Positions 3,579 through 32,977 of a stretch of 36,866 bases of DNA are shown here, piece by piece. Source of the stretch: a virus (Duplodnaviria > Heunggongvirae > Uroviricota > Caudoviricetes); IMG/VR virus record IMGVR_UViG_2724679138_000004. One strand, 5' to 3'. How positions within the stretch are numbered: position 1 is the first letter of the stretch; each line of letters begins with the position of its first letter. Under the pieces are notes generated by a model. The model was not told the DNA's origin. It worked only from the letters and a program-made list of their open reading frames with translations, and did not search any database. A program made the translations under genes and the position numbers.

Positions 3579-3592
3579 TTTTCGTCACCTCC

Positions 3593-6460: not shown

Positions 6461-6516
6461 GGTTTTCTCACTTCTGAATCGGGGTTAACCGGTCAGCCAG
6501 GCTGACCGGATGAAAA

Positions 6517-8349: not shown

Positions 8350-8751
8350 AGTCGTGATTTGTACTCACTCATTTTCCGACTGACAATTTACTTAGCCCAA
8401 AAGCTATCAAATCTGACAGTCTGCTTTGAGCGATGAGCGGACGTTAATTTGGGGTTGTACGCCAGAACCGCAGAAATTTCCGTGACGCATAATGTTTGCG
8501 GTTGTCTGCCTGTACGTAAGACCGCCGTCAACCGGACAGTAAAGAAATGGCCGTTTGGAACGAAAAATCACTGACCGCAGCGTCTCACATAGCTGGTACG
8601 GATAAATTCTCACTCACGGCACCATAAACGTACACGTCAGCACATGCCAAACATGCTTCAAAATTCGACTAATTCACTGCGCCAGAAATTTCTGGCGGTT
8701 CCGGTACAGCCCCCCTATATTATGCGAATTGTTAATTAACACTGATCAGCA

Positions 8752-9810
8752 TTATTTTTCCTGTGTATCATCATTCAAATCCGGTGCAGTCCGAAGTACA
8801 TTCGTGAAGTTAAGAAGCATTTTTTTTGTGCCAAAAGTGAACATCTCAGAGATTTCAGATGAAATGCTATCCCAAATAAAAATGATATGCCTCAAATACT
8901 CAACAACTCCAGGCCGGTTCAATGTACCTTCGATAAGATAATGTTCAGGAATACCCTCCATTATTCCAGTCTTTCTTATCCAGAAAAGTCCAACCCTGTT
9001 GGCCGATTCACCACCTGCAAGCACATAACTACGACGTTGATCTGTGTTTGGAATAGAAAGTATTTCAAAAATTAAAGGCACGATCATTTCAAGCCTTACG
9101 AATGGCCTAGGATGTGTACCAACTGGTTCTGTTTGAACCTCATAAAGTTTTTCGCCTTGAAAACGATGTAACATTAATGATATACCACATGTCAAAAAGC
9201 AAATTGCCAATTCGCAATCTTCATTAATGGCAAGTTGTCGAACAATTTCTATTACACACATGTATGTGGAAAAATAATCGGCTGCAAGTTCCGTTGCGTG
9301 CCAAATGGCAGATGCATCGTCATTGTCTGATGATAAATTATTTAAGTGAATTTCAGACATTACATTAATTTCGGAACTATACCTGTTCCTTATAAATAAA
9401 TGGCCCTGAGTTAAGTGTCCTAACTCATGAAAAAAAACCCATGTCAAACCTGCTAGAAAAATGTTTTTAGTGAAATTAGTTTTATCCCACTCATTTCTTA
9501 AAGTGGTAAAGTTGGTTTGCCCATTAAACCACATATCATAAACTTCATCATCTTTACCAGAGTGAACATAATCTACAAAAGCAGCAGCATCATCATATAA
9601 TGATCGGATTAATTTATATGTGATTGATATAGCATGCCTTGGTGGTTCATCACGCTCTGAGTAAACTAAAGCTCTAGCGTTCACAATATCTGTAGTTTCA
9701 AATTGTAAAGCGAGACTGCCATTAATTTCTTTATAGTAATGTTCATTCAAATCTTCTGTAATAGAAGACAAAACACTTGTAGCCCAGTTGTATAGCGCGA
9801 TACTTTCCAT
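8752..9810 (-). CDS. Hypothetical protein with zincin-like HExxH motif (FFHELGHLTQGH); candidate defence cargo in the FI-G (Z/fun) hotspot
   Basis: 352-aa ORF, visibly AT-rich relative to flanking tail genes; HELGH encoded at 9415-9429; acidic residues downstream (HATELAAD) could supply the third zinc ligand. No family assignment possible without search. Confidence 0.75.
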   Translation of the reverse strand: MESIALYNWATSVLSSITEDLNEHYYKEINGSLALQFETTDIVNARALVYSERDEPPRHAISITYKLIRSLYDDAAAFVDYVHSGKDDEVYDMWFNGQTNFTTLRNEWDKTNFTKNIFLAGLTWVFFHELGHLTQGHLFIRNRYSSEINVMSEIHLNNLSSDNDDASAIWHATELAADYFSTYMCVIEIVRQLAINEDCELAICFLTCGISLMLHRFQGEKLYEVQTEPVGTHPRPFVRLEMIVPLIFEILSIPNTDQRRSYVLAGGESANRVGLFWIRKTGIMEGIPEHYLIEGTLNRPGVVEYLRHIIFIWDSISSEISEMFTFGTKKMLLNFTNVLRTAPDLNDDTQEK

Positions 9811-10094
9811 TTGACACCATTAGAAAATTTGTTATTTATTTCTATTTTTTGAAAAATCACTTTTTAAAAAGTGGTCATATGCATAACTGAAAGCTGCGTT
9901 GTCACTGTCAAAATCATTTTCCGTTATGGCTTCCCATCCCCTCAACCACTTGTGCCTAATGCGCCACTTATGGGGTCCGCTTGGAAAACGGAAAATATCC
10001 TACGTTAAGCCTGTTTTTTAAGCAAGCATGACAGGCAGCTTTGAGCGAGGAGCGAACATGTGGTTTTTCAATAGTAACACCCGCTCCTTCCATC

Positions 10095-10415
10095 CTACTG
10101 CGGAGTGCAATCTATAGATAAAATCGTTTTCCGTGACTTAGCTTCTGGAGGGGACATTTCCTCGCTTTCGCTGATATTGAAGCTCCATGCGCCAACGCCT
10201 TTGACTTTCGAAAACAACAATTCACCTTCATAGCCTAGATCGTCAGTGCCAGCGATTATGACCATCCCACTCAACGTTCTCTGGTATGCATTCTCAAAAA
10301 CACGCCCCTCATAATCAATAGTTGCCCGTTCTTTGTCGAAGACAACCGCTTTGTCGCCCTCACAACGCATTACTGACTTGGCTTGTGATACACAGGAAAA
10401 ACCCAGAAGGATCAA
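10095..10415 (-). CDS. Small hypothetical protein, possible Sec signal peptide (…LLILILLGFSCVSQA|KSV)
   Basis: 106-aa ORF with TTG start in the track; no in-frame ATG upstream, so the true start and the signal-peptide reading are uncertain. Confidence 0.4.
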   Translation of the reverse strand: MILLGFSCVSQAKSVMRCEGDKAVVFDKERATIDYEGRVFENAYQRTLSGMVIIAGTDDLGYEGELLFSKVKGVGAWSFNISESEEMSPPEAKSRKTILSIDCTPQ

Positions 10416-10481
10416 TATCAGCAGTCTTTTAATTATTTATCTTCTACATACATAATTAAGGAGTGAAGTGGTCAACAAAAA

Positions 10482-10520
10482 CTGGCCGCATTATAAGATA
10501 TGTTTCAAGAACCACAAACG
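10482..10520 (-). promoter_or_regulatory. Candidate sigma70 promoter for the cargo genes (perfect -10 TATAAT on the minus strand at plus 10490-10495; weak -35 TTTGTG)
   Basis: Hexamers read by eye in the G-cargo intergenic region; 17-nt spacer. Confidence 0.3.
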
Positions 10521-10604
10521 TCAGCTTTTGGCACAGAGCGGACTGTCAGATTAGGCTTTACTCTGTTCTATAGGTATGTAAGCTCACACCAGAGTTCATA
10601 CAAC

Positions 10605-11135: not shown

Positions 11136-13385
11136 TTATACCTGCGCCACGTTATACCATGTCCCGTTAATGTATTTCTGCACCGGTCTGTAATATACGC
11201 CACCAATGTTATCGGCAGAGTTTGAGCCGGTATCCTGAACAATAATGCCGGTATATACGCAACCTGACGGAGCCTGATGCGTCCATGTAGTACCATTATT
11301 TGCTGGTTTATATGTAGATGCACCGCCCAGCCGCATGTCTCTCACATAACGTGAATCTGACTCAGCTTTGGTGTATGCACCAACATCTCCCGCTGAGGGT
11401 TTATGAGCAGTTGTATATAGTTGCGCCCATCCAGACCAGTTAGCATCTGTGGTATCTCGTCGGGAGCGAATATATGCCGGAGCATGAGCACCGCTGGTTC
11501 CACTCCAGCCAATAAGTAACTCACCCTCTCCTACAGCGGTTACGCCAGTGAGATGAAGCACATTACCATAGGCTGTTGGGTAGCCATTGTTGTATGCCTC
11601 ATACATCTGAATACCTGGTGTCCCCTTTACGCTCCCACCTAATGCAGTAACACGGTTTCTGGATACCAGTGTATTAATATTTATATCGGCAGAGCCATCA
11701 AATCTGACACCATTAATATTTCTTGCGTTCGCTAACTTAGTTGCTGTTGCAGCATTTCCTGAAAGGCTGGAAATAAATGGATGTGAACAGTAATAACCAC
11801 GTCCATTTTTAAAATCCAGAATAGCCTGTACGTTCGTGCTTTCTGTAGCGGGATTAGTTGCCCCCCACTTATATGTCGTCTGACCGACGACATAATCCTC
11901 TGTCGGAACAATAACCGTTAGCCCTTCCTCTGCAAGAATTTGTACTGGGAAAGCTCTGGCTTCAACATAAAAAACACTACATACATCATCATCTTTCAGG
12001 CTTGTAACAATGGAATGGATTGAACGCTCATTAGTCTGATACGTCCAGAAATAACCTGCCGCATATGAACCACGATCGGTCCAGCCTCCGGGCATAACCA
12101 TGCCATTAAACTCGCAGTTATTCATTACATAATCGCCGTTATAACAACCAGTTGAAATAACGACGCGGGATGCCATTTCTCCTGAAAGGCTGGCAGCACG
12201 GCGAAAGATAACGGGATACCACTTCCCGGCAACGACATTTGCAGGGGCTGCAAACGAATACTTTCGCATTCCCTTTTTCTTATCCACTTCACCTTTGCTG
12301 TAAACATTAATGTTACTCAGGAAGCGTCCTTTATCAGGAATATCCGCACCGTTCTGATCTTTCTGAAGACGTTTTTCAGCATTGTCATAGGCAGACTTCA
12401 CCGCTTTTGGTGTTGCAGCCAGCGTTTCAGAATCACTGTTGGTGGCGCTACTGAGCTGGACAAGACCTTTTCGCGCTGTGGTGGCATCCTGTGCAGTGTA
12501 TTTCCCGTTAGCAAGGTCATACGCTGTCTTAACCGCCTTTGGCGTTGCCGCAAGCGTTTCAGAATCGCTGTTGGTGGCGCTACTGAGCTGGACAAGGCCT
12601 TTTCGCGCGGTGGTGGCGTCCTGTGCAGTGTATTTCCCGTTAGCAAGGTCATATGCTGCTTTTACCGCTTTTGGTGTTGCGGCGAGCGTTTCAGACGTGC
12701 TGTTGGTGGCACTACTGAGCTGGACAAGGCCTTTTCGCGCTGTGGTGGCGTCCTGTGCAGTGTATTTCCCGTTAGCAAGGTCATATGCTGCTTTTACCGC
12801 TTTTGGTGTTGCGGCGAGTGTTTCAGACGTGCTGTTGGTCGCACTGCTTAACTGAGTAAAACCTTTGGCGGTCAGCGAGGCGTCCGGGTGACGTCGTGAC
12901 TGTTCATGTTCTGCAATTTTGTCATCAACGTAATCCTGCGTTGCCATCACCGTTGTGGTGTCAATGGTCAGCGCCACTGAGGCCACACTGCTGACGATGA
13001 TGACCATGCGGCAGGTCTGCGAACGCCCTGAGCCTTCGGCAAGAGCTGGCTTATAACTTTCAGCCATGTTCGCCACGGCAATTAACGTTCCAGCATCATC
13101 GTACAGGCCAAGCTCACGCATCCAGAAACCGCCCACCTCCGGCGGAATAACCAGCTCTGCGATAATATAATTACTGTTTCGTTTGTCCTGGCTGATTTTG
13201 TTCAGCGCATGTCGCCAGACTTCGTGGATAAGCCCGGTCTGTCCGGCATCCGGGACAGGCAATTTACCACCGCCATCCCCGACGGCCATCGTGGTAATGT
13301 TGACCTTCCGCCCTCCCGGCGCGGTTGCCGCTGCCAGCTTTGCTGCACCGGCAGTGGTGATAACGGTTTTAAATTTCGTGCTCAT
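11136..13385 (-). CDS. H: Tail fibre protein H with four tandem 44-aa repeats
   Basis: 749 aa; N-terminus matches P2 gpH (MSTKFKTVITTAGAAKLAAA...); central repeats ...LSSATNSTSETLAATPKAVKAAYD...; divergent C-terminal receptor-binding part. Confidence 0.9.
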   Translation of the reverse strand: MSTKFKTVITTAGAAKLAAATAPGGRKVNITTMAVGDGGGKLPVPDAGQTGLIHEVWRHALNKISQDKRNSNYIIAELVIPPEVGGFWMRELGLYDDAGTLIAVANMAESYKPALAEGSGRSQTCRMVIIVSSVASVALTIDTTTVMATQDYVDDKIAEHEQSRRHPDASLTAKGFTQLSSATNSTSETLAATPKAVKAAYDLANGKYTAQDATTARKGLVQLSSATNSTSETLAATPKAVKAAYDLANGKYTAQDATTARKGLVQLSSATNSDSETLAATPKAVKTAYDLANGKYTAQDATTARKGLVQLSSATNSDSETLAATPKAVKSAYDNAEKRLQKDQNGADIPDKGRFLSNINVYSKGEVDKKKGMRKYSFAAPANVVAGKWYPVIFRRAASLSGEMASRVVISTGCYNGDYVMNNCEFNGMVMPGGWTDRGSYAAGYFWTYQTNERSIHSIVTSLKDDDVCSVFYVEARAFPVQILAEEGLTVIVPTEDYVVGQTTYKWGATNPATESTNVQAILDFKNGRGYYCSHPFISSLSGNAATATKLANARNINGVRFDGSADININTLVSRNRVTALGGSVKGTPGIQMYEAYNNGYPTAYGNVLHLTGVTAVGEGELLIGWSGTSGAHAPAYIRSRRDTTDANWSGWAQLYTTAHKPSAGDVGAYTKAESDSRYVRDMRLGGASTYKPANNGTTWTHQAPSGCVYTGIIVQDTGSNSADNIGGVYYRPVQKYINGTWYNVAQV
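12380..12875. repeat. About four tandem copies of a 132-bp coding repeat inside H (phage tail-fibre repeat)
   Basis: Near-identical 132-nt units visible in the DNA; the antisense ORF 12439-12855 is repetitive for the same reason. Confidence 0.85.
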
Positions 13386-15179: not shown

Positions 15180-15811
15180 AGAGGACTCCCGGTTGTGCCG
15201 CCGCTGTCGCCGGGGTGTTTATGGGTATGCAGTACCTTACCGTTCGATGAGAGTTCACCGCCGGTGTGTTCAATGTTGCCGCGCATCGTCCCGCCCTTCT
15301 GCACTTCCAGCGTGCCGGTAATCAGCCTGTTGGTGCAGACCACCTCCGGTGTGTCCAGGGTGACGCGGGTTGATGCTTTCACCGTGACCACCGGCACCGT
15401 GGCAGTAACAGAATCAGAAGCCGTCACGCTGGCCGTTTTAATTCCGCTTACCGTGAGTGCACTGGTTTCGGGTTCATATTCAATCACCGCCCCGTCAGGG
15501 AAACGGATATGCAGGGCATCCGCCGACACAGACGGCGAGGGGTTATCGCCGGAATAAATCCCCGGCAGAACGAACGCCGTGTCGAGTTCACCGCCCACGG
15601 CCAGAATCAGCACCTGTTCCCCCACGGAAGGTGCCCACCATGTGCGCGAACGCCCGGCACGATGGGTCAGCCACTGAAGCCAGTCGGTGCACATGCCGCC
15701 GGTCTGCACACGGCAGCGACCGGCGTTAAGGTTGGTTTCGACGACAAGACCGGTGCGAATCATGTTGCGCAGTGCGCGCGCGAGTTCCTGAATATTTGCG
15801 AGAGTGTTCAT
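15176..15811 (-). CDS. V: Baseplate spike / assembly protein V
   Basis: ATG at 15809-15811 gives 211 aa (MNTLANIQELARAL...), matching P2 gpV; the listed ORF begins at an upstream TTG. Confidence 0.88.
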   Translation of the reverse strand: MNTLANIQELARALRNMIRTGLVVETNLNAGRCRVQTGGMCTDWLQWLTHRAGRSRTWWAPSVGEQVLILAVGGELDTAFVLPGIYSGDNPSPSVSADALHIRFPDGAVIEYEPETSALTVSGIKTASVTASDSVTATVPVVTVKASTRVTLDTPEVVCTNRLITGTLEVQKGGTMRGNIEHTGGELSSNGKVLHTHKHPGDSGGTTGSPL

Positions 15812-15894
15812 GCGTGTGAGATTGCACAATATATAAAAGTTATGCTATCTGGATTCATTTGTAGAACGACCATACAACATTCGAGGAGAGCGTA

Positions 15895-16680
15895 ATGTTC
15901 AGTGATAATGTGACTAATGCGTGGTGGTTTATCTCTTTGTATCTATTTTTATTAATAGCATTAACATTTATTACCTTTGGTAAAAGTAATCTTATGAGAT
16001 TTATTGCACATCATTTCAATTTTGAGTATTCAGACAGAAAGTTAAAAATGCTCGACAAAAAATGGCGCGACATTCAACTATTTAAAATAATTAACGGAAT
16101 CAATGTATCAGGCATCGAAGATGTGAGAATGATACAGCAGGGGCTGATTGATGGAAAACTAAAAACATCGTATTTTTTTCTTACTCGCTTCTGGGGTGAC
16201 ATAACAAAACCACCACACATAATTAAAACAATAATTGTAATTCTGTCCAGCATTATTTATATTCTCTTCGCATGTTATATACACAACAAACAATCCGCTA
16301 TAGTAAGAGATGCCATAGGCATACCATATAAAAATATGATGTACTATGTTTATAGTGACAAAGTTCTTTTATCCTTCAACAATAAAACAGTTGAATTCAA
16401 TAAAACTTATAGCCTTGCCGATTGCAAGAGGCTACGAAACGTATTTATAAAAGACACACTTCCTGAGATCGCCTGCAATAAGCTCTTACAGCTAAACGAG
16501 GAGGACTCGGAATGGTTAAGTCAGGAGATTAAAGATAATAACAGCCAAAAAAAAGCATTATTAATAATATCCCTCATCTATTTCATTTCAGGTCTGGTTA
16601 TATTCCTGTCATATACAAAATTCCTTTACGCCAATAAGAAGGTTGTAGAATACAAAGCATCAAATAAAAATCACTCATAA
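15895..16680 (+). CDS. AT-rich moron: hypothetical membrane protein with three predicted transmembrane helices
   Basis: 261-aa ORF on the strand opposite the late genes; strong RBS GAGGAGAG 5-12 nt upstream of ATG; hydrophobic segments near aa 9-28, 108-128 and 220-245; occupies the P2 orf30 position between V and S. Confidence 0.8.
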   Translation: MFSDNVTNAWWFISLYLFLLIALTFITFGKSNLMRFIAHHFNFEYSDRKLKMLDKKWRDIQLFKIINGINVSGIEDVRMIQQGLIDGKLKTSYFFLTRFWGDITKPPHIIKTIIVILSSIIYILFACYIHNKQSAIVRDAIGIPYKNMMYYVYSDKVLLSFNNKTVEFNKTYSLADCKRLRNVFIKDTLPEIACNKLLQLNEEDSEWLSQEIKDNNSQKKALLIISLIYFISGLVIFLSYTKFLYANKKVVEYKASNKNHS

Positions 16681-16686
16681 ACCTCT

Positions 16687-16721
16687 AAACATTGAGCGAC
16701 CAGCATGGCCGCTCAATGTTT
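16687..16721. terminator. Bidirectional hairpin terminator between the moron (+) and S (-)
   Basis: Perfect 12-bp inverted repeat AAACATTGAGCG / CGCTCAATGTTT with an 11-nt loop, T-rich on both sides. Confidence 0.55.
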
Positions 16722-16751
16722 AATTGCGCATCAGCCTCTGCCTGGATAAAA

Positions 16752-17204
16752 CTAACGCTCAAGGTGAGCCAGGATAATCTCTTCAATCATCTGCACATCC
16801 TCACCGGTAAAGCCGAGCAGAGGACGCGCCGGATAATCAATTTTCTTACCGTCTTTCCGGGTTTCTTCCGACAGACCGAACTGATGCACACTGGCGATTT
16901 TCGGCGACTTCCCGCCGTAAAATTCCATTGATGCCTGTTCCGGGCTGGCGCGGATATGCAAAAAACGACTGGTGATAAGTTTCGCAAACATTTTTCGTTT
17001 AACGCGACCGGTCTTTTTTCTGGCGCTCTGCTGCTGGCGTGGTGCGTAGGGTGTGCCGTCCGGGGCTTTCTGTGCCATCACCCGACGCTGCTGACTCTGA
17101 CGCAGACGTTTCGCCAGTTCGGCACTCAGTCGCCGACGCCCTGACGGTGACAGCGACTCAATAAGTCCGGTCAGCCGGTCTTCAAAACGCTTAAACTCAT
17201 TCAT
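16752..17204 (-). CDS. S: Tail completion protein S
   Basis: 150 aa; P2 gpS length and position. Confidence 0.9.
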   Translation of the reverse strand: MNEFKRFEDRLTGLIESLSPSGRRRLSAELAKRLRQSQQRRVMAQKAPDGTPYAPRQQQSARKKTGRVKRKMFAKLITSRFLHIRASPEQASMEFYGGKSPKIASVHQFGLSEETRKDGKKIDYPARPLLGFTGEDVQMIEEIILAHLER

Positions 17205-22952: not shown

Positions 22953-23125
22953 TGTCAGGAGTCCTGAATAGTGATTAGAGGAGTCACATGTCGGCATCAG
23001 TTTCCCGACGATACGCATCCTCCGCCATCAGTCCCGGATGGCTTATCACTGACACAACAGCACCTTAGCGAATCGCGGGGCGCGACTCAGTAGCCTTGCC
23101 GTGTATTCATCACGGCGAGGTATTC

Positions 23126-24898
23126 ATGACCATCACCACAGACACCACTCTTTTACACGACCCGCGTCGTCAGGCGGCGCTGCTGTACTGGCAGGGGTTT
23201 TCCGTGCCGCAGATTGCCGCCATGTTGCAGATGAAACGCCCGACGGTGCAGAGCTGGAAACAGCGCGACGGCTGGGACAGCGTTGCCCCCATCAGCCGTG
23301 TCGAAATGAGTCTGGAAGCGCGGCTGACCCAGCTCATCATCAAACCGCAGAAAACCGGCGGTGACTTCAAGGAAATTGACCTGCTGGGACGCCAGATTGA
23401 ACGACTGGCACGGGTCAACCGCTACAGCCAGACCGGCAACGAGGCAGACCTTAATCCGAACGTCGCTAACCGCAACAAAGGCGGGCGGCGCAAACCGAAA
23501 AAGAATTTTTTCAGTGACGAGGCCATCGAAAAGCTGGAGCAGATTTTCTTTGAGCAGTCTTTCGATTATCAGTTGCACTGGTATCGCGCCGGGCTTGAGC
23601 ACCGCATCCGCGATATCCTGAAATCCCGCCAGATTGGCGCGACGTTTTATTTTTCCCGCGAGGCGCTGCTGCGCGCCCTGAAAACCGGTCATAACCAGAT
23701 TTTTCTGTCGGCCAGTAAAACGCAGGCGTATGTGTTCCGTGAATACATCATCGCCTTTGCCCGTCTGGTTGATGTTGACCTGACCGGTGACCCGATTGTC
23801 CTGGGCAATAACGGCGCAAAACTGATTTTTCTCGGCACCAACTCCAACACCGCACAGAGCCATAACGGCGACCTGTACGTCGATGAGATTTTCTGGATCC
23901 CGAATTTTCAGGTACTGCGTAAGGTGGCATCAGGTATGGCCTCACAGAGTCACCTGCGCTCGACCTATTTCTCCACCCCGTCCACGCTGGCGCACGACGC
24001 CTATCCGTTCTGGTCGGGTGAACTGTTTAACCGGGGACGCGCCAGTGCCGCTGAACGCGTGGAAATCGACGTCAGTCATAACGCCCTTGCCGGTGGGCTT
24101 CTCTGTGCGGACGGCCAGTGGCGACAGATTGTCACCATTGAGGACGCGCTGAAAGGCGGCTGCACGCTGTTCGACATTGAGCAGCTCAAACGCGAAAACA
24201 GCGCCGACGATTTTAAAAACCTGTTCATGTGTGAATTTGTTGACGACAAGGCGTCGGTGTTCCCGTTTGAGGAGCTGCAACGCTGCATGGTCGACACGCT
24301 GGAAGAATGGGAAGACTATGCGCCGTTTGCCGCCAATCCGTTCGGCTCCCGCCCGGTATGGATTGGTTACGACCCGTCACACCGTGGCGACAGCGCCGGA
24401 TGCGTGGTGCTGGCACCGCCGGTGGTGGCCGGTGGCAAATTCAGAATACTTGAGCGTCACCAGTGGAAAGGCATGGACTTTGCCACTCAGGCGGAATCCA
24501 TCCGCAAACTCACCGAAAAATACAACGTCGAATACATCGGTATTGATGCCACCGGCCTCGGTGTCGGCGTGTACCAGCTCGTGCGCTCGTTCTATCCCGC
24601 CGCGCGCGATATCCGCTACACGCCGGAAATGAAAACCGCAATGGTGCTCAAGGCAAAAGACGTTATTCGCCGTGGCTGTCTGGAATATGACGTCAGCGCC
24701 ACCGACATCACCAGCTCGTTTATGGCTATCCGCAAGACCATGACCAGCAGCGGACGCAGCGCCACCTATGAGGCCAGCCGCAGCGAGGAAGCCAGCCACG
24801 CCGACCTCGCCTGGGCGACCATGCACGCCCTGTTAAATGAGCCACTCACCGCCGGTATCAGCACCCCGCTGACATCCACCATTCTGGAGTTTTACTGA
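23126..24898 (+). CDS. P: Terminase ATPase (large) subunit P
   Basis: ATG at 23126 with GAGG RBS gives 590 aa (MTITTDTTLLH...), as P2 gpP; divergent from O. Confidence 0.9.
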   Translation: MTITTDTTLLHDPRRQAALLYWQGFSVPQIAAMLQMKRPTVQSWKQRDGWDSVAPISRVEMSLEARLTQLIIKPQKTGGDFKEIDLLGRQIERLARVNRYSQTGNEADLNPNVANRNKGGRRKPKKNFFSDEAIEKLEQIFFEQSFDYQLHWYRAGLEHRIRDILKSRQIGATFYFSREALLRALKTGHNQIFLSASKTQAYVFREYIIAFARLVDVDLTGDPIVLGNNGAKLIFLGTNSNTAQSHNGDLYVDEIFWIPNFQVLRKVASGMASQSHLRSTYFSTPSTLAHDAYPFWSGELFNRGRASAAERVEIDVSHNALAGGLLCADGQWRQIVTIEDALKGGCTLFDIEQLKRENSADDFKNLFMCEFVDDKASVFPFEELQRCMVDTLEEWEDYAPFAANPFGSRPVWIGYDPSHRGDSAGCVVLAPPVVAGGKFRILERHQWKGMDFATQAESIRKLTEKYNVEYIGIDATGLGVGVYQLVRSFYPAARDIRYTPEMKTAMVLKAKDVIRRGCLEYDVSATDITSSFMAIRKTMTSSGRSATYEASRSEEASHADLAWATMHALLNEPLTAGISTPLTSTILEFY

Positions 24899-25917
24899 TG
24901 AGCAAGAAAAAAGGGAAAACACCGCAACCTGCGGCAAAAACAATGACCGCCAGCGCCCCGAAAATGGAGGCATTCACCTTTGGTGAGCCGGTGCCGGTAC
25001 TCGACCGCCGTGACATTCTGGATTACGTCGAGTGCATCAGTAACGGCAGATGGTATGAGCCGCCGGTCAGCTTTACCGGTCTGGCGAAAAGCCTGCGTGC
25101 TGCCGTGCATCACAGCTCGCCGATTTACGTCAAACGCAATATTCTGGCCTCGACATTTATCCCGCATCCGTGGCTTTCCCAGCAGGATTTCAGCCGCTTT
25201 GTGCTGGATTTTCTGGTGTTCGGTAATGCGTTTCTGGAAAAGCGTTACAGCACCACCGGTAAGGTCATCAGACTGGAAACCTCACCGGCAAAATATACCC
25301 GCCGTGGCGTGGAGGAGGATGTTTACTGGTGGGTGCCGTCCTTCAACGAGCCGACAGCCTTCGCGCCCGGCTCCGTGTTTCACCTGCTGGAGCCGGATAT
25401 CAATCAGGAGCTGTACGGCCTGCCGGAATATCTCAGCGCCCTTAACTCTGCCTGGCTGAATGAGTCGGCCACGCTGTTCCGCCGCAAGTATTACGAAAAC
25501 GGCGCTCATGCCGGATACATCATGTATGTCACCGATGCCGTGCAGGATCGCAACGATATCGAAATGCTTCGCGAAAACATGGTTAAGTCGAAAGGCCGCA
25601 ACAACTTTAAAAACCTGTTTCTCTATGCCCCACAGGGGAAAGCCGACGGCATTAAAATTATCCCCCTCAGTGAAGTGGCGACGAAGGACGATTTTTTTAA
25701 TATCAAAAAAGTCAGCGCCGCAGATCTCCTGGACGCACACCGCATCCCCTTTCAGTTGATGGGCGGTAAGCCGGAGAATGTCGGGTCACTAGGAGATATT
25801 GAAAAAGTGGCAAAGGTCTTTGTCCGCAATGAACTCATTCCATTACAGGAGAGAATAAAGTCAATAAATGAATGGTTAGATATGGAAGTCATAAAATTCC
25901 TTGATTATAACTTATAA
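24898..25917 (+). CDS. Q: Portal protein Q
   Basis: 339 aa; P2 gpQ-like, immediately downstream of P. Confidence 0.9.
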   Translation: MSKKKGKTPQPAAKTMTASAPKMEAFTFGEPVPVLDRRDILDYVECISNGRWYEPPVSFTGLAKSLRAAVHHSSPIYVKRNILASTFIPHPWLSQQDFSRFVLDFLVFGNAFLEKRYSTTGKVIRLETSPAKYTRRGVEEDVYWWVPSFNEPTAFAPGSVFHLLEPDINQELYGLPEYLSALNSAWLNESATLFRRKYYENGAHAGYIMYVTDAVQDRNDIEMLRENMVKSKGRNNFKNLFLYAPQGKADGIKIIPLSEVATKDDFFNIKKVSAADLLDAHRIPFQLMGGKPENVGSLGDIEKVAKVFVRNELIPLQERIKSINEWLDMEVIKFLDYNL

Positions 25918-25929
25918 GTAAATATATAA

Positions 25930-25956
25930 AGTTGGCGGAATGCAATCCCGCCAACT
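25930..25956. terminator. Hairpin terminator between convergent Q (+) and the 2TM gene (-)
   Basis: Perfect 9-bp stem AGTTGGCGG / CCGCCAACT; T-rich on the minus-strand 3' side. Confidence 0.55.
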
Positions 25957-25959
25957 TAA

Positions 25960-26667
25960 CTATATATACTTCCTTTTCACTCTACTTAATTCTATCACTG
26001 ATGAGGAGTGACAAAATGACAAATTAATAGTATCGATATAATCCAAAATTTGACTCTCAACCTCAATAAAAATATTTTTGGGCCCATTACTAATCGATAT
26101 ACCGATTTCATCCAAAACAGCCATCATTTTTCTCTGATGAGTTTTATATTTATAGTCTTTATTTTCCTCTGTAATATGCGCATTGGCTTCCTCAATAACG
26201 CATTTGATTCTAGATATTATTTCTAGATAATCTCTCGAAACAGATATATCACCGCCTTGCGCTTCAGGGAACATAACCCTATACCATCTAAAAAAATTAA
26301 CTTTCTCTGGATAGATGCTACTTCTTTTAGTTAACTCAGCACTTGCAAATTCTCTAAACATCGTCAGATGACTAGTGTAATTACTATTATTATTATTTTT
26401 AACTCCAGCGTTATATGTCATCAAAGCAATCATAACACCAAAAACGGTAACAAAAGTTGTTATAAGCCATCCAAACGCCTGAAAATACATTACTATACCA
26501 GATGTTTTTTCCGCAAAAAATTTTAAGCACTGGCTATCGAAGCATATATCACGCTCATATAGCTTTTCATTCTGAATAGTTTCAAAAAGAGAAATTAGCG
26601 AAAAAATCAAAAAAAGAGCTGACGACACACCGACAATATATTTGAGAAGTCTAATATTTGCATTCAT
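25960..26667 (-). CDS. Two-transmembrane-helix protein, putative effector partner of the upstream reverse transcriptase
   Basis: 235 aa, strongly AT-rich; hydrophobic helices near aa 8-28 and 58-85; start ATG overlaps the RT stop (ATGA), indicating translational coupling. Confidence 0.8.
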   Translation of the reverse strand: MNANIRLLKYIVGVSSALFLIFSLISLFETIQNEKLYERDICFDSQCLKFFAEKTSGIVMYFQAFGWLITTFVTVFGVMIALMTYNAGVKNNNNSNYTSHLTMFREFASAELTKRSSIYPEKVNFFRWYRVMFPEAQGGDISVSRDYLEIISRIKCVIEEANAHITEENKDYKYKTHQRKMMAVLDEIGISISNGPKNIFIEVESQILDYIDTINLSFCHSSSVIELSRVKRKYI

Positions 26668-27938
26668 AATGGTTTTAAAGATGCCAATCTAGATTTAAAA
26701 CACTCCAGTTTTTCTTTAAATGATTCAGAGCGAGTAAGAATAATCATCTTATATCTCGTCAAATCATATTTTCTTTTATACCAATGTTTATTTTGATTAC
26801 CTTTCGAATACGACAACTCTAAACTTTTTATAGCTGCATCAATCACAGCAACATCTCTTTTAGATGGCATCGGTTTTATTGCCTGCAACTGTTTCTTGAA
26901 TGATTCATATTTTTCATGCCCAACACGGCCAAGCTTATTCACTCTCCCCATACATCTATTGAATTCTTTTCTGTATGCAACACTTGTTTTTGTGTTATTT
27001 TTTGCCGCCAGTAATTTCAAATTATGTATAGATGCCCTGATTCTTTTGACTTCATCGGATGGTAGTCGAGGTGAGTCATAGTCAACTCTTAAACCATGTA
27101 CTTTTATAGGTTCAGATGAACAGTGAAATATTTTAGTTTTGTGCTTATTTATCGGCAAGTCATGCTCAGAAAGCATCCTCTCTATATGGCTTTGCATTTG
27201 AGAAAAATCATAATTACTTATTTTAGATGACACGGTAATATCATCTACCAAACGCGTATAAACAAGTCCTTTCCTCTGCGCACGTCTTACCACATCCCCT
27301 TCAACAGCGAATAAACACAAAGTTGCTATATAGCTTGATGTTAAGGCCCCCTGTACGACAAAATCATCCTTAGTACATATATCCACCAAGTATTCAAGAG
27401 CCTCATCCTTAATATGCAATATCTCCTCAAACACGCTCCTAACCAGATCTCTATGGATATTATCGAAAAAATTACTTATATCCACCTTGAGAACTGTTTT
27501 TGCTCCACAATGAGCCTTTGCACATGAAACATAGTCACGTTTGACATTAGAATTTAAAACATCATTTTTACTGGGAACTGAACCAAACAAAAATGAAGGA
27601 AAAACAACCAATTCCTTAAAGATACGTTTATTAATTCTACTCTGTAATAATCTCATTTTAGGATGCAGGGAGTAGACAATCCGTTTGCTTCCGTCAATTT
27701 TGGGAATTTCTTTTAGAGTATATTTCTCATCTAATGGTAATTCTGCAATAGCTTTAAGCTCTTCAACAGAAATCGATAAAGCCTTTGACAACTTTTCAAG
27801 TGTTGTGATAGGAGCATTGGATTTGCTGTATGGTTTAAATTTATCCATAAACATACCATTCAAATTCAAAGTTACGTACGGTCTTCCCATACTCAAGGGT
27901 GGAACAGCAGAGATGCTTACATCAACAATTGTCAGCAA
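26664..27938 (-). CDS. Retron-type reverse transcriptase (candidate); start codon uncertain
   Basis: RT motifs in order: LKVDISNFFDNI, QGALTSSYIATLCL, YTRLVDDITVSS (catalytic xDD at about 27239-27248), LPINKHKTKIF, VHGL; ORF in track starts at TTG 27938, alternative ATG starts at 27890, 27854, 27848. Confidence 0.8.
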   Translation of the reverse strand: MLTIVDVSISAVPPLSMGRPYVTLNLNGMFMDKFKPYSKSNAPITTLEKLSKALSISVEELKAIAELPLDEKYTLKEIPKIDGSKRIVYSLHPKMRLLQSRINKRIFKELVVFPSFLFGSVPSKNDVLNSNVKRDYVSCAKAHCGAKTVLKVDISNFFDNIHRDLVRSVFEEILHIKDEALEYLVDICTKDDFVVQGALTSSYIATLCLFAVEGDVVRRAQRKGLVYTRLVDDITVSSKISNYDFSQMQSHIERMLSEHDLPINKHKTKIFHCSSEPIKVHGLRVDYDSPRLPSDEVKRIRASIHNLKLLAAKNNTKTSVAYRKEFNRCMGRVNKLGRVGHEKYESFKKQLQAIKPMPSKRDVAVIDAAIKSLELSYSKGNQNKHWYKRKYDLTRYKMIILTRSESFKEKLECFKSRLASLKPL

Positions 27939-28106
27939 CAGCCTCTGCTATCTTTCGACCGTACGTAATGTCGTCGGCTACGGCACCATCGTAGTTGACG
28001 ACGGTGGGGCCTCGCTGATAGGTCCATAGTGGACGCTTTTTTGTAAAAGCAAAAACTGACAATTTAATGTTGTTGACTGCCGCATACCAAGCGAATCGCT
28101 GGTGCG
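27927..28106 (-). ncRNA. Candidate retron msr/msd-like non-coding RNA upstream of the RT
   Basis: 9-bp inverted repeats (plus-strand CTGACAATT 28056-28064 and AATTGTCAG 27927-27935) bracket about 120 nt containing hairpins, e.g. GTCGTC-aa-CTACG-loop-CGTAG-cc-GACGAC at about 27968-28005; hypothetical. Confidence 0.3.
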
Positions 28107-28112
28107 CTAAGA

Positions 28113-28141
28113 ATAATGCAACAAAAAAATAAGAATTTCAA
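28113..28141 (-). promoter_or_regulatory. Candidate sigma70 promoter driving the candidate ncRNA and RT (TTGAAA-17 nt-CATTAT on the minus strand)
   Basis: -35 at plus 28136-28141, -10 at plus 28113-28118, 17-nt spacer. Confidence 0.4.
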
Positions 28142-28179
28142 CCGGGTAACTGCAAGCCAGCGACATCGTTTAGCGCGCA

Positions 28180-28198
28180 GTGCTTTCCCCGCCTCGCC
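28180..28198. other. cos cohesive-end site (reverse complement of GGCGAGGCGGGGAAAGCAC)
   Basis: Exact match to the 19-nt P2 cohesive end as I recall it; lies between Q and A as expected. Confidence 0.75.
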
Positions 28199-28404
28199 CG
28201 CCCGCTTCATGGGGCGGTTTTAATGCAGTTGCATGACCACTCAACTAGCGCGCCAGTCCTGATGTCGCCAGGCAGTTATTGTTCTCTGACTTGCATGCGC
28301 TTCGATGCAGAGTAATGCACTTCCTGAATTGCTCGCATTCGCATCGTTATCATGATAGAAAACAGGTAGTTATTTGTGCGCAACTTAAGAAGAAATCACT
28401 AATT

Positions 28405-29948
28405 ATGAAAAAGATTTATGAATTAACTACTGGTAGAGCGCTTAAGTATTTTCTGCAGCATGATTCATACACTACTCTGGAGCTACCCAGTTATGTCGAT
28501 TTTTCTTCCTTGCTTGAAGAAATCAACTCCGCGATAGATGAAGGTAAAATCAACTTCCAACCTGACTCCAAGTCATTGATGGGGAAGAATATAAATTACG
28601 AGGTTTTAGTCAGCAAAGATGGCTTATATAGCTGGCGACGAATAACACTAATTAATCCTCTGTACTACGTGTATTTTTGTAAACTTATTACATCCCCTTC
28701 CAACTGGAAGGCTATAAGGAATAAATTTAGAGAGTTTGAGTCTAATGATCTTTTTTATGCTCAAGTACCCCAGTGAGCAAAAAGAACACCTCAAACGTAG
28801 CTGCATCTGTTTTAAACTGGTGGGAAGATTTTGAACAAAAAAGTCTTTCATTGGCTCTTGAGTATGAGTTCATGTTCAGCACAGATATTTCAAACTTCTA
28901 CCCTTCTATTTACACTCATAGCTTTGAATGGGTATTCATCTCAAAAGAAGAGGCCAAAAAGAAAGAAAATAACAATAACCCAGGACGATTGATTGACACT
29001 CATATCCAGATGATGATGAGTAATCAGACAAACGGAATACCATTGGGTAGTACGTTGATGGATACATTTGCCGAATTAATTTTAGGCGAAATTGATTTAC
29101 AGCTAAGAAAAAAAACTGAAGAGCAAAAAATAACGGATTACAAAGTAGTTCGCTACAGAGATGATTATCGAATATTTTCAAGCAGTAAAGATGATTTGGA
29201 CAAAATCTCAAAGTGTTTGGTTGAGGTCTTAGGTGAGTTTGGGCTTGATTTAAACTCAAGAAAAACAGAACTACATGACGACATCATTCTTCACTCCCTT
29301 AAATCAGCAAAAAAAGAATATATTATAGAAAGGTCGTTCAACTCCCTACAGAAAATGTTGTATGCAATATATTTATTTTCTTTAAAACATCAAAACTCCA
29401 AAATTACAGTTAGATATTTAAATGATTTCTTGCGAAAATTATTTAGGAAGAAAAAGATCACAAATAGTGGGCATCAACTAGATGCAATGCTTGGAATTAT
29501 TTCAAGCATCATGGCTAAAAACCCAACCACCTACCCAGTGGGAATGGCTATTTTCGCAAAACTCTTGACCTTCCTTTATGACGACGATGAACTCAAATTT
29601 GGCAAGTTACAACAACTTCATTGTAAACTAGGTAAACAACCAAATACTGAAATGTTAGATATTTGGTTTCAACGAGTTCAAGGGAAGATACACACACAAT
29701 GGGAAGGCGATTACAAAACAGCCCTATGTCAACGCATAAATGATGAACTCAAGGAAAAAAAAACATTTACCATTGATGGCCTGTGGGATGTAGAGTGGAT
29801 TCCGGGTTCAGCCAAAAATAAAAACAAACAGAAAATACTATCAATTTTGAAAAAAACAAAAATTGTGGATTTAGATGCATTCGAAGAAATGGATAATGAT
29901 ATTACACCAGAAGAAGTGAACTTATTCGACAAGGAACACAGCGCTTAA
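28405..29948 (+). CDS. Abi/UG-type reverse transcriptase split by a -1 frame change at a T6 run (segments 28405-28776 and 28773-29948); possible pseudogene or programmed frameshift
   Basis: Segment 1 carries RT motif 1-like RRITLINPLYYVYFCKL; segment 2 carries FMFSTDISNFYPSI, NGIPLGSTLMDTFAEL, VVRYRDDY (YRDD at 29154-29165) and FGLDLNSRKTEL; frame 0 opens at 28749 and the T6 run is 28751-28756. Confidence 0.75.
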
Positions 29949-30046
29949 CGAAACAATGTTATTAACTCAACATGACTTCGTTAAGCATTAAAGCGAACAG
30001 TCATATGAAATTTCGACATCCCTAACGCCTCGCAAGCTCGTTGTTC

Positions 30047-30092
30047 ACCCCCGCCAGCACTGAAAGCGAGTTTCAGCGTCGACGGGGTTTTC
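30047..30092 (+). terminator. Rho-independent terminator downstream of the second RT
   Basis: GC-rich imperfect hairpin CCCCGCCAGCACTGAAA-gcgag-TTTCAGCGTCGACGGGG followed by TTTTC. Confidence 0.6.
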
Positions 30093-30113
30093 TATGGTCA
30101 ACGTGGTGACAGA

Positions 30114-30374
30114 TTATGGGCACGCGTGAAGGTAGAAATATGGACGGTTGGGATTATTGATTTCTCCCATACGGCTGCAGTTATCACTGACGCTCTCAGT
30201 CCCTCCGACCAACTCGTAGAGGGTCAGATTCTCTTTGACCATAATTTGTAAACAATAGCCATCAGCCGCAGACTCTTGCACGAGTACAATGGCGGAACCG
30301 GACGCATAGCTAGTAATGTATGCATTAGTCATAATGACATGCTTCCAAAGCAAGATCGCCACGCAGTTCCGCAT
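30114..30374 (-). CDS. Small hypothetical protein downstream of A (P2 orf91 position)
   Basis: 86-aa ORF only; no recognisable motif. Confidence 0.3.
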   Translation of the reverse strand: MRNCVAILLWKHVIMTNAYITSYASGSAIVLVQESAADGYCLQIMVKENLTLYELVGGTESVSDNCSRMGEINNPNRPYFYLHACP

Positions 30375-30435
30375 GATCCATCAGTTGCTGATACCAACCA
30401 TCAAGTGGAAGAAAAATCAACCATTTCAATCATTT

Positions 30436-32712
30436 TTATATGTTTGTTGAGAATCCCGGCCACTCATCAGCGACCGGATACGTGAATTTTTCCCCGTCAT
30501 AATTTACGGTCGCGCCACGCGCCAGCGCCTCAAGCTCCCATCGCTGTGGCCTGATACCGTTCTGAGCAAGGTCAACGCGGATACGGGTAATTTGCGTTCG
30601 TTCCGACCGGGTCAGTCTGGCCGATGGCGCTATTTCATGTGGTTTTAACGGGCTTCCGTTTCTCTGCTGACGATTTGGTGTTCTCAGTTCGTGTTTTAAT
30701 GCACCTCTGAGCGCCCTCACGACCTCTGGCTCATTCCATTCGATAACACCGTCATCAACCAGATTAAGCACTGCTGCGGCGTGCTCAGAAGGTGTGGGAG
30801 CCGGTAACGAAGTATCACCGTCGGTAAGCTTTCCACAGTTATTGACAGGACTCCGAGGCGCGGCGATGCCGCTTTTTAAAGTCAAAGGCTCAACGACCGG
30901 CACTTTCGGAACAATGCGCCAGTCCGTCGTTCTGGTGATATGAATATGACGCGCGCCGAGATGCGGCGCGTAAATGCCGACCACTCTCTCGACTTCTTCC
31001 TCGTACTCGTTAACGTCATCCGACGGGCTACGGGCAACCCTGACAGTCTGGCAATCGCGCGGGACATTTGCCCCACCCTGCGCGCTGATATACAGCGCAA
31101 AATCACCACTGTCTGCGGCGGCGCGTGCAGCCTCGACGCGCTCGTCAAACTCATCAGCAATGCTGACGCCGCGAGGCAATTTGCGTAGTTCACGGTAAGC
31201 CCCCATTGTCGGCAGGCCAACCGTTTTAAATTGCGGAATGCGCCACGTTGACGCCCATGCGGTAACAGCCGCGGCAGTATCTTTCAGCGGTCTGCCGGTA
31301 TCGTTATCGAGCTGCCCATCCAGTGCATAGCCGTCGATATTTTTTGAGATGTATTTCGCGATATACCCCGCAGCACCGCCCCAGTTAAGGTGTTTTGCCT
31401 GAAAACGGTTTCGCGCGGCTCCTCTTTCGTCGCCATCCTCTTTGAGCGCATAGCGACGCATGATTTCGATAATCTGGTTACGCTGGCGTGGATGACAAAA
31501 AAGCATCATATGCCAGTGCGGCGTTCCGTCGTGGTGTGGCTCGACGACACGCAAACCGTAGACCTGTAAATCATTATCCTTGAATGCCGTGCGCATCAGG
31601 CTCCAGATACGGCAGAGATAACGCTGCGCATCCTTTGGATTAAATGCCTCATCGTTCCAGCCGTGATTAAGCTGAACGGTTTTACTTTCGCCTTTTCCGA
31701 CCTGACGTGTCGGGTGATACTTTGACGGCGCGGTCAGCGTGATAAACATCCCCAAATCACCCTCTGCGGCGGCGTAACGCTCAATACCGGCAATGGTGTT
31801 CATCAGCTCCATCCGGCGAATTTCTGGATTAGAAATACTGCCCATCACCTTACTGATAAGGTCGATGCGCTCGCCGGTTTCCCTGTTTTCAAGGTCACAC
31901 GATTTAAGAAATTCCAGATTTGCCTGGCGGCGCGCACGCACATCACGAATGGCATGTTTACTGGCATAAGGAGAACGGTCTTTATTGACCTCCCCGACAG
32001 CAATCAGTAACGCCTCATGCCAGCGCATACGCTGGCCTTTAAGCTGACTAATCCACCACTCATCGTTAAACAGACGGGCAATGGCAGAATATGCCTGCCT
32101 CGTGGTCATCTGTCCTTTACGGTATTTTTTCCAGTAGAGCGGGGAAATATTGAAAGCACGTGCAGCGCCAGCAACATGACCATACAGGTGAGCCTGCGCC
32201 TCATCCGTAAACAGCGATTCTTTTTCACCATGCGCATCAACCCATGCATCGCAGAGTTCCTCATACATCATGAAAAGCTGCGATGAGATACGGGCGGCAA
32301 ACTTTTTCAGCTCCTTGTCATTCATTCCAGGCAGGCGCGCATAGTGGTCACGCTCTGCCAGAAACAGCAACGACGCGTCGGTGTTCATTTCATGGCGCTG
32401 ATTCACGCGCTCAATGCGCGGCCATAAACGACGCTGAAAAGTGGATGTGAGGAAATAAAACCCGTGCACCGGGCTTTTATTGCGCCGGATGTAGTCATAG
32501 CGTGAAGTAAACAGCGAGCGCAAAAAGTAAGGCAGGCGGTTAATCGTGGATAAAACACCTTGCACCTGACGCATCTCGTCACGTGTAAGGGGTCTTTCGC
32601 GCCCGACAGCCTCGCGTGGCGCGTTCCATACATAAGCACCGGTAAACGTCTTACCGGTGCCTGCGGCAAATGCTGACGGAGGGACAAAACGCCCGGAGGC
32701 TTTAACGGCCAT
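30436..32712 (-). CDS. A: Replication initiation protein A (rolling-circle nickase)
   Basis: ATG at 32710-32712 gives 758 aa (MAVKASGRFVPP...), close to P2 gpA; the listed ORF extends to an upstream TTG. Confidence 0.9.
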   Translation of the reverse strand: MAVKASGRFVPPSAFAAGTGKTFTGAYVWNAPREAVGRERPLTRDEMRQVQGVLSTINRLPYFLRSLFTSRYDYIRRNKSPVHGFYFLTSTFQRRLWPRIERVNQRHEMNTDASLLFLAERDHYARLPGMNDKELKKFAARISSQLFMMYEELCDAWVDAHGEKESLFTDEAQAHLYGHVAGAARAFNISPLYWKKYRKGQMTTRQAYSAIARLFNDEWWISQLKGQRMRWHEALLIAVGEVNKDRSPYASKHAIRDVRARRQANLEFLKSCDLENRETGERIDLISKVMGSISNPEIRRMELMNTIAGIERYAAAEGDLGMFITLTAPSKYHPTRQVGKGESKTVQLNHGWNDEAFNPKDAQRYLCRIWSLMRTAFKDNDLQVYGLRVVEPHHDGTPHWHMMLFCHPRQRNQIIEIMRRYALKEDGDERGAARNRFQAKHLNWGGAAGYIAKYISKNIDGYALDGQLDNDTGRPLKDTAAAVTAWASTWRIPQFKTVGLPTMGAYRELRKLPRGVSIADEFDERVEAARAAADSGDFALYISAQGGANVPRDCQTVRVARSPSDDVNEYEEEVERVVGIYAPHLGARHIHITRTTDWRIVPKVPVVEPLTLKSGIAAPRSPVNNCGKLTDGDTSLPAPTPSEHAAAVLNLVDDGVIEWNEPEVVRALRGALKHELRTPNRQQRNGSPLKPHEIAPSARLTRSERTQITRIRVDLAQNGIRPQRWELEALARGATVNYDGEKFTYPVADEWPGFSTNI

Positions 32713-32977
32713 ATGAGCCAAAAGCCTCTGAACAACGCTTGCTGAGTTGCTCAACCTGCGCGTTTAAATCAGCAAAAGACTTTGCGCTTCCGGTCAGAAT
32801 ATCGTGATGCATCAGGCCGGAAACGAGCTGGCTTAATTTCGGGTAATAACCAACCACCGCCAGCCATTCCTGACCGGCGTTTTTACCGCTTTCCGCTCTC
32901 TTTTTCTCGTGGAGAATAAACTGAAAGCTGTCACTGGTAACGACATAACGTTCGCCAATTTCAATACGAATACTCAT
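32702..32977 (-). CDS. P2 orf83-like hypothetical protein
   Basis: 91-aa ORF in the conserved early-operon position upstream of A. Confidence 0.7.
   Translation of the reverse strand: MSIRIEIGERYVVTSDSFQFILHEKKRAESGKNAGQEWLAVVGYYPKLSQLVSGLMHHDILTGSAKSFADLNAQVEQLSKRCSEAFGSYGR

Follow-up and report, generated by a model that had tools for sequence, protein, structure and literature searches.

The window analysed here is the whole 36,866-nt stretch of a Caudoviricetes genome record (IMG/VR IMGVR_UViG_2724679138_000004). In it, the gap between the P2-type backbone genes Q and A is filled by two AT-rich cargo blocks that are split by a GC-rich cos core. The features of the locus, in order of position, are:

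24898–25917, plus strand: portal gene Q, backbone (Pfam Phage_portal, 4e-14)
25929–25957, minus-strand match AAGTTGGCGGGATTGCATTCCGCCAACTT: 13-bp terminator-like hairpin in the convergent gap between Q and the retron effector gene (terminator scan)
25960–26667, minus strand: retron Ec48 effector, 235 aa, two-transmembrane (NCBIfam NF038235, PADLOC 2TM_IV)
26664–27848, minus strand: reverse transcriptase (RT) of retron Ec48 (Retron-Eco6, type IV), 394 aa from MDKFK (PADLOC RT_IV, Pfam RVT_1)
27872–28108, minus strand: retron ncRNA, msr-msd plus a conserved 3' element (census match, fold, relatives)
28113–28141, minus strand: promoter-like site of the retron operon, TTGAAA-17-CATTAT, inside the left cargo block
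28172–28241, no strand: cos core, 70 bp, the sole segment in common with other P2-like phages
28180–28198, minus strand (read 28198→28180): 19-nt cohesive end, GGCGAGGCGGGGAAAGCAC
28242–28404, plus strand: AbiP2 upstream region, part of the right cargo block
28405–29948, plus strand: AbiP2 (Abi-P2), RT-superfamily polymerase, frameshifted (PADLOC AbiP2, PDB entry 7R08)
30049–30091, plus strand: compound GC hairpin followed by TTTT, the likely AbiP2 terminator (read from the sequence)
30114–30374, minus strand: ORF85, small protein of the right cargo block (phrog_13272, 2.9e-53)
30436–32754, minus strand: replication gene A, backbone (Pfam Phage_GPA, 7.1e-123)

Q ends at 25917 and A is reached at 30436, as in the preliminary description. 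These positions are correct as gene ends, but not as limits of the backbone: the cargo has recombined at points within the 3' ends of Q (~25857) and A (~30445–30455) and not at the stop codons. The match to the retron-less relatives L013 and L014 ends at 25856, inside Q, and the match to two retron-bearing relatives (L011 and L012) picks up again at 30445–30456, inside A. The last ~60 nt of Q (25857–25917) are part of the variable AT-rich block. The GC content is 0.349 in the left cargo (25857–28171), 0.629 in the cos core and 0.379 in the right cargo (28242–30444), against 0.54–0.56 in the backbone, in agreement with the earlier observation of a GC-richer cos stretch with low-GC genes on both sides. 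The hairpin at 25929–25957 was scored as terminator-like on the minus strand only, on the side of the retron operon, and occupies the place equivalent to that of the P2 terminator tQ. A counterpart of P2 Orf91 (DUF3850) was not found downstream of A (best tblastn E = 1.2). The interval is very probably the accessory hotspot next to cos in a P2-like prophage that sits between yegQ and yegR.

The cohesive end is identical at 19 of 19 positions to the annotated cosL/cosR of P2 (NC_001895), 55 of the 56 bases of the P2 cos junction are conserved, and the cosR record of phage fiAA91-ss terminates at window position 28180. Positions 28198–28217 of the core hold a GC hairpin with a T run after it. 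About 100 phage records align with the cos query at positions 73–143 only. Breakpoints on the left of the core were located at 28172–28173 in L013 and L014, and on the right at 28241 in L012.

On its sequence, the left cassette is retron Ec48 (Retron-Eco6, type IV). The effector scores 226.7 bits against the equivalog NF038235 (retron_Ec48_2TM; cutoff 65) and 4.1e-85 against PADLOC 2TM_IV, and its gene has 100% DNA identity and the same coordinates as the EC93 gene encoding WP_000993280. The RT covers 384 of the 386 profile positions of PADLOC RT_IV (7.6e-177) and matches Pfam RVT_1 (1.7e-31), with the catalytic VDD motif at residues 201–203; an alternative start at the ATG at 27890 yields the numbering of Millman et al. 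(D216/D217). The RT, the 2TM effector, the gene order, the 4-nt overlap between the two genes and the ncRNA sequence are all as in the published retron. There is no detectable difference from it, and the setting is a native P2 prophage, 39 nt from the cohesive end. The cassette would be transcribed away from cos, in the order ncRNA, RT and 2TM effector, from its own promoter. By eye, the non-P2 relatives L002, L003 and L006 show consensus-like −35 and −10 boxes in the corresponding place upstream of their ncRNA. The msDNA made by the Ec48 RT is 48 nt long, and inhibition of RecBCD by phage proteins, for example lambda Gam or T7 gp5.9, leads the system to kill the cell (Millman et al., 2020).

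A retron-like module with a candidate ncRNA had been proposed, and the ncRNA is borne out by the published one: the segment 28127→27942 is the Eco6 ncRNA as printed in the supplement of the retron census. The predicted fold (z = −4.0) comprises the following minus-strand elements:

28102–28087: 5' hairpin
28050–28022: two small hairpins
28002–27970: variable msd-type hairpin
27968–27957/27883–27872: outer stem of a Y-shaped element
27952–27942/27913–27903: inner stem of the Y-shaped element
27899–27886: small hairpin of the Y-shaped element
28064–28056/27935–27927: long-range helix

Paired cells make up 76% across 12 type IV relatives, compared with 62% after shuffling, and both sides have changed in 31 of 41 pairs. 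The long-range helix covaries and was found again independently in relatives of unrelated sequence. Three models of the a1/a2 pairing were weighed: the a1 of the census, which falls within the predicted promoter; the outer stem of 12 bp, for which the branch G would be permuted, at 27879, and which was rejected as this G is not conserved in the relatives; and the long-range helix. The published 5' end of the RT-DNA falls at 27961, 26 nt off this helix, and the helix is not flanked by an invariant G. An Rfam scan of 25000–31000 (E ≤ 1) returned only a chance snoRNA match, and no family covers the retron ncRNA. Of the sources examined, the census supplement alone prints the ncRNA and the RT-DNA; Palka (2022) and Simon (2019) give no sequence in their supplements, and a full-text sequence search had no match. 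The native Ec48 ncRNA appears to run into a conserved, covarying Y-shaped element that adjoins the RT start and that is cut through by the published ncRNA boundaries.

By homology, the right cassette is AbiP2 with ORF85. The two RTs are different and point away from cos in opposite directions, as described earlier, one matching PADLOC RT_IV on the minus strand and the other PADLOC AbiP2 on the plus strand; the orientation of AbiP2, which would be transcribed away from cos, is that of old/tin in P2. The PADLOC AbiP2 model is covered at positions 4–487 across two ORFs, the first matching at 4–118 (8.8e-36) and the second at 127–487 (1.8e-116). The protein, with its helical C-terminal domain, aligns with PDB entry 7R08 over residues 1–508 (E = 7.6e-258, 74.7% identity). 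Two features of the AbiP2 of P2-like coliphages (Figiel et al., 2022) are conserved: the priming tyrosine, which is Tyr30 of the 514-aa protein and Tyr61 of the 7R08 construct (an offset of 31), and the catalytic YRDD motif of the palm, which lies within the second ORF and, in the protein once restored, at residue 251. The position between cos and A is also the same. AbiP2 is a trimeric, template-independent DNA polymerase that is protein-primed from a tyrosine (Figiel et al., 2022), and published work shows that it aborts T5 infection. The DNA is 99.6% identical to the ORF544 and ORF85 record of P2-EC58, one of the two phages (P2-EC30 and P2-EC58) of Odegrip et al. (2006); the longer ORF544 start (Odegrip et al.; 7R08) corresponds to the ATG at 28315. 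The upstream region 28242–28404 travels with AbiP2 in L013, L014 and P2-EC58, where the right arm is present, and a promoter scan of this region detected no consensus promoter for AbiP2 on the plus strand. The hairpin at 30049–30091 was absent from the automatic terminator scan owing to its long loop. ORF85, annotated as ORF85 in P2-EC58 and as ORF34 in pro147, travels with the AbiP2 allele of the window. The 487 bp from 29949 to 30435 occur in L013 and L014 at 98.4% identity and are absent from L011, L012 and P2.

The assignment of the second RT as Abi-like was right as to family, but a frameshift in the window had been missed. AbiP2 is not a single uninterrupted ORF of ~514–544 aa here; it reads as two ORFs (28279–28776 and 28773–29948), and translation from 28405 halts at 28776 after 123 aa. 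The cause is a one-base deletion that cuts the protein after 117 native residues: a run of six T residues at 28751–28756, where 65 of 65 other copies have seven. The intact 514-aa AbiP2 of EC93 differs solely by the one extra T. A programmed frameshift at the T run was considered and rejected, as the heptamer, in this frame, does not form a canonical slippery site and T7 is what all of the other copies have. The missing base reflects either a private mutation of very recent date or a sequencing error at the homopolymer. We put the chance that the organism carries an intact gene, and that the frameshift is an assembly or sequencing error, at about even. The change is a single base within a homopolymer whose length is T7 in every other copy, and two of the four positions at which the window and the EC93 prophage differ in 36,866 are indels of a single T in homopolymers, opposite in direction: AbiP2 is broken by one of them in the window, and the tail sheath gene by the other in EC93. 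A recent true loss of function in a costly abortive-infection gene would, however, look identical, and in about four other genomes AbiP2 is also one base shorter (1,544 versus 1,545 nt), in one of them annotated as two ORFs. As read, only the retron would be functional here, AbiP2 being interrupted, and in a defence annotation of this genome AbiP2 should be flagged as frameshifted.

The comparison across P2-like relatives that had been suggested was run on 5,426 complete E. coli genomes, ~2,200 of which carry the flanking P2 genes. The retron was found in 57 and the AbiP2 allele of the window in 64 (75 with the alleles taken together), so that neither RT is conserved backbone, and the view of the locus as variable defence cargo next to cos holds. 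The modules co-occur in 45 genomes, and they also occur separately: 12 genomes have only the retron and 30 only AbiP2. L011 combines the retron with a second AbiP2 allele (72% identity) and L012 combines it with a DUF7380 gene, whereas AbiP2 lies opposite a different left gene in L013 and faces an empty left arm in L014. The Q allele tracks the retron and the A allele tracks AbiP2. On this evidence, two independent cargo cassettes make up the hotspot, each abutting the 70-bp core and inherited as a separate linkage block (Q with the left cargo, the right cargo with A), with recombination at cos. In P2 itself cargo is found on the A side only, likewise directed away from cos in the old/tin region, and cos-to-Q is 167 bp; in the window the Q side is occupied too, and the two sides act as separate sub-hotspots.

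Co-regulation of the retron and AbiP2 through common DNA, raised in the preliminary description, is unlikely because, in relatives, either arm is exchanged without the other, with breakpoints at the cos core, and each module brings its own upstream region. Only 70 bp (28172–28241) of the proposed shared intergenic region (27939–28404) are common, and these are backbone; the remainder belongs to one module or the other. The cos-spanning inverted repeats I3, I6 and I12 were considered as shared operators and are attributed to chance, being short and imperfect, with different centres, and lying in independently exchanged blocks.

The strong linkage of the two systems is most simply explained by descent in one phage lineage. 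It could instead reflect a co-selected, functionally coupled pair held together by flanking cos, through layered abortive infection or shared DNA products. In favour of selection for cooperation, each system is rare (57 and 75 of ~2,200), yet 45 of the 57 retron carriers also have AbiP2 where ~2 would be expected if the two were independent, and the same retron lies opposite two AbiP2 alleles that are just 72% identical. However, the 42 main cases of the pair are 99.6–100% identical over 4.9 kb, indicating one lineage and few independent events; among the matches listed, the genomes with the retron and the second allele share one layout and probably one origin; and each system also occurs without the other. 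Each works alone when cloned (Millman et al., 2020; Mestre et al., 2022), and AbiP2 is broken in the window. We therefore regard a pair kept across cos by selection as improbable. If true, it would account for 45 of 57 Ec48 prophages carrying AbiP2 though each system is in ~3% of P2-like prophages, and AbiP2 may cover phages that escape the RecBCD-guarding retron, or the DNA products may interact; to this extent the strong linkage in E. coli offers a hypothesis of synergy. Misassembly of the interval, or RTs that are selfish retroelements (a group II intron or a DGR), has a negligible probability: nothing beyond the RVT_1 domains speaks for either, the RTs match the retron type IV and AbiP2 families best and score only 45 and 42 bits with the model for group II maturases (cutoff 300), and the identical contiguous sequence is present in 42 complete genomes and one isolated phage genome, pro147.

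Very probably, then, this is the known P2 cos hotspot carrying retron Ec48 and a frameshifted AbiP2, which are inherited separately and have no common regulatory DNA except the cos core. The two-RT arrangement was correctly observed but is not new. The 4.9-kb interval is 99.6% identical in Escherichia phage pro147 (NC_028896) and ~100% identical in the E. coli EC93 prophage, with AbiP2 intact in both; the 42 genomes carry it, and Table S5A of Rousset et al. (2022) enters it as 'RVT_1 + hypothetical + RVT_1'. Both systems are already characterized. The locus is the same as the P2 old/tin (TO) region, the gpA–gpQ hotspot (Rousset et al., 2022; NAR 2026, gkag898), with the same AT-rich mosaic character, and P2 old shares with retron Ec48 a response to the loss of RecBCD activity. 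As a textbook cos-proximal defence hotspot with two published abortive-infection systems, it adds little that is new; gpA–gpQ, a single locus in the literature, here takes the form of two sub-hotspots, with recombination between them at a 70-bp cos core.

The ORF listing and family searches place three backbone genes around the interval, and the late region of the window is P2-type as judged from its sequence:

23096-24898, plus strand: terminase P
24898-25917, plus strand: portal Q
30436-32754, minus strand: replication gene A

Two AT-rich blocks are sited between Q and A, with GC contents of 34.9% (left, 25857-28171) and 37.9% (right, 28242-30444) against 54-56% for the backbone, and are kept apart by a 70 bp segment of 62.9% GC. 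Within this segment, minus-strand positions 28198 to 28180 carry GGCGAGGCGGGGAAAGCAC, the same sequence as that annotated for cosL/cosR in P2 (NC_001895), and 55 of 56 bases of the cos junction equal those of the circularised P2 junction. Approximately 100 P2-like phage records align to the intergenic region solely at 28172-28242; in the fiAA91-ss record, cosR terminates exactly at window position 28180. With the GC values, the cos identity and the restriction of these records to 28172-28242 confirm the preliminary description of cos as lying in a GC-richer stretch between the AT-rich cargo of two reverse transcriptases (RTs). The coding 3' ends of Q (25857-25917) and A (30436-30455) fall inside the cargo cassettes. 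Q is 339 residues long in the window versus 344 in P2 and the retron-less relatives, and its AT-rich C-terminus differs.

The left arm was assigned to retron Ec48 (Retron-Eco6, type IV) from the following features:

25929-25957: 13 bp hairpin between the convergent effector and Q genes
25960-26667, minus strand: retron Ec48 two-transmembrane effector, 235 residues (NCBIfam equivalog, 226.7 bits, cutoff 65)
26664-27848, minus strand: type IV retron RT, overlapping the effector ORF (PADLOC, 7.6e-177; catalytic VDD present)
27968-27957/27883-27872, minus strand: covariation-supported outer stem of a Y-shaped element, part of the ncRNA at 27872-28108
28141-28113, minus strand: promoter-like TTGAAA-17-CATTAT of the retron operon (sequence scan)

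The effector ORF also matches PADLOC 2TM_IV (4e-85). An alternative RT start, the ATG at 27890, lies 14 codons upstream and gives the aspartates the numbers D216/D217 used for the Ec48 mutants of Millman et al. In the literature, Ec48 yields an msDNA of 48 nt and sets off abortive infection when RecBCD is inhibited by phage proteins. By eye, unrelated marine type IV retrons have similar -35 and -10 boxes at the same position.

Apart from a few characters that are wrong in the stored text, minus-strand positions 28127 to 27942 correspond to the Retron-Eco6 ncRNA as the retron census gives it in its supplement. The ncRNA was compared with 12 type IV relatives from marine genomes and viral contigs (RT identity 26-77%). 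All share a 5' hairpin and the Y-shaped element directly 5' of the RT start. Compensatory changes are abundant: 76% of cells across the alignment are paired, versus 62% in shuffles and 37-44% with the partners slid, and both sides change in 31 of 41 pairs. A long-range helix (28064-28056 with 27935-27927) is also present in the relatives, its sequence being unrelated from one to the next, and looks like a canonical a1/a2 stem. The 5' end of the census Eco6 RT-DNA is the complement of C27961, inside the outer stem of the Y and 26 nt from the long-range helix, and the census ncRNA start falls within the predicted promoter. The boundaries as published cut through the native Ec48 structure (Y-shaped element plus long-range helix, 27872-28108). 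This mismatch with the published RT-DNA end leaves the verdict on the finding unchanged.

In the right arm, the PADLOC AbiP2 model is split over neighbouring ORFs, 28279-28776 (profile positions 4-118, N-terminal) and 28773-29948 (127-487); as read, an N-terminal fragment of 123 residues is all that the window encodes. A T run at 28751-28756 has six T in the window versus seven in the nearly identical prophage of E. coli EC93. In complete E. coli genomes, an 83-base probe over the run found 65 copies, all with T7 and none with T6. Putting the T back gives a single 514-residue AbiP2 ORF from 28405 (E = 7.6e-258 and 74.7% identity to the Abi-P2 structure 7R08) in which the YRDD motif is retained, as is the priming tyrosine (Y30, equivalent to Tyr61 of the crystallised construct). 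The window and EC93 differ at four of 36 866 positions, and two of the four are indels of a single T in homopolymers, one in each direction: at the second (window 8000), the tail sheath gene is frameshifted in EC93 and intact in the window, whereas for AbiP2 the reverse holds. The opposite indels suggest that one or both assemblies contain sequencing errors and, as the differences are so few, we consider it evenly balanced whether the AbiP2 lesion would be such an error. Two features lie downstream of AbiP2:

30049-30091: hairpin and T run
30114-30374, minus strand: ORF85 (phrog_13272)

ORF85 accompanies the window's AbiP2 allele in HKUOPY1, WS3294A and the 2006 P2-EC58 record, and is missing with the second allele (PSS-11). 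It is contained in the 487 bp tail of the AbiP2 cassette (29949-30435) and is without PGAP annotation in EC93. Its PHROG match is limited to residues 15-86, so its true start is probably internal.

Whether the two RT modules act independently or are co-regulated had been left as a question; independence is favoured by the separate exchange of the arms among relatives. In TUM1226 the same retron faces a DUF7380 gene, in PSS-11 it faces the second AbiP2 allele (just 72% identical to that of the window), HKUOPY1 combines AbiP2 with another Q-side gene, and WS3294A has AbiP2 and an empty Q-side arm. Homology to the window breaks at 28172-28173 and 28241, which leaves the cos core as the sole DNA common to both modules; the retron promoter lies in the left cassette and the AbiP2 upstream region in the right. 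The Q allele tracks the retron (99.5% identity versus 93-94% in retron-less relatives) and the A allele tracks AbiP2 (98% versus about 94%), so the prophage acts as two linkage blocks meeting at cos. Terminase cutting would create DNA ends at cos and allow recombination there, a reasonable cause of this pattern.

Among roughly 2200 genomes with the locus, the retron is carried by 57 and AbiP2 by 75 (64 with the window's allele, 11 with the second). The two stand side by side in 45, far above the approximately two expected by chance, as would be seen if selection kept the pair; but the main cases, 42 in number, represent one phage lineage in near-identical copies and the second-allele cases listed have a single layout. 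The independent pairings therefore probably number two or three, and selection for the pair is a minor, distinctly improbable explanation.

Other features of the window were recorded. An AT-rich island at 8400-10600 (GC 0.36-0.43) lies where P2 has Z/fun, with the tail sheath gene on one side and the tail-fibre assembly gene on the other; its minus-strand ORF 8752-9810 (352 residues) matches PADLOC Lit only weakly and in part (1.4e-5, residues 88-146) and nothing in Pfam or PHROG, and ORF 10095-10415 (minus strand) gave no matches. A second island (15600-16800, GC 0.35-0.43) amid tail and baseplate genes holds plus-strand ORF 15895-16680 (261 residues; phrog_2407, unknown function, 8e-144). 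The tail-fibre gene (11136-13385, minus strand) contains direct repeats at 12378-12845 (offset 132 nt, about 86-91% identity), seen as secondary BLAST hits against EC93.

The arrangement of retron, cos and AbiP2 is already known. Forty-two complete E. coli genomes and Escherichia phage pro147 carry the whole 4.9 kb at 99.6-100% identity. In many complete E. coli chromosome records (RefSeq) the region is at 2113-7014; the PSS-11 and TUM1226 records have their position 1 where the prophage gpA gene starts, and the placement looks like an artefact of assembly rotation to a 'replication' gene. Odegrip et al. (2006) had already described the right arm as the locus of P2-EC58. The cos-proximal gpA-gpQ hotspot was defined by Rousset et al. 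(2022), who list 'RVT_1 + hypothetical + RVT_1' with the same protein accessions (Table S5A, which covers roughly 18,000 gpA-gpQ loci) and name the type IV retron (Table S5B); AbiP2 appears again among P2 defences in a 2026 survey. Two RT modules do flank cos as the preliminary description held, but they are not new: the observation is confirmed, its interpretation is partly supported and the arrangement was known already.
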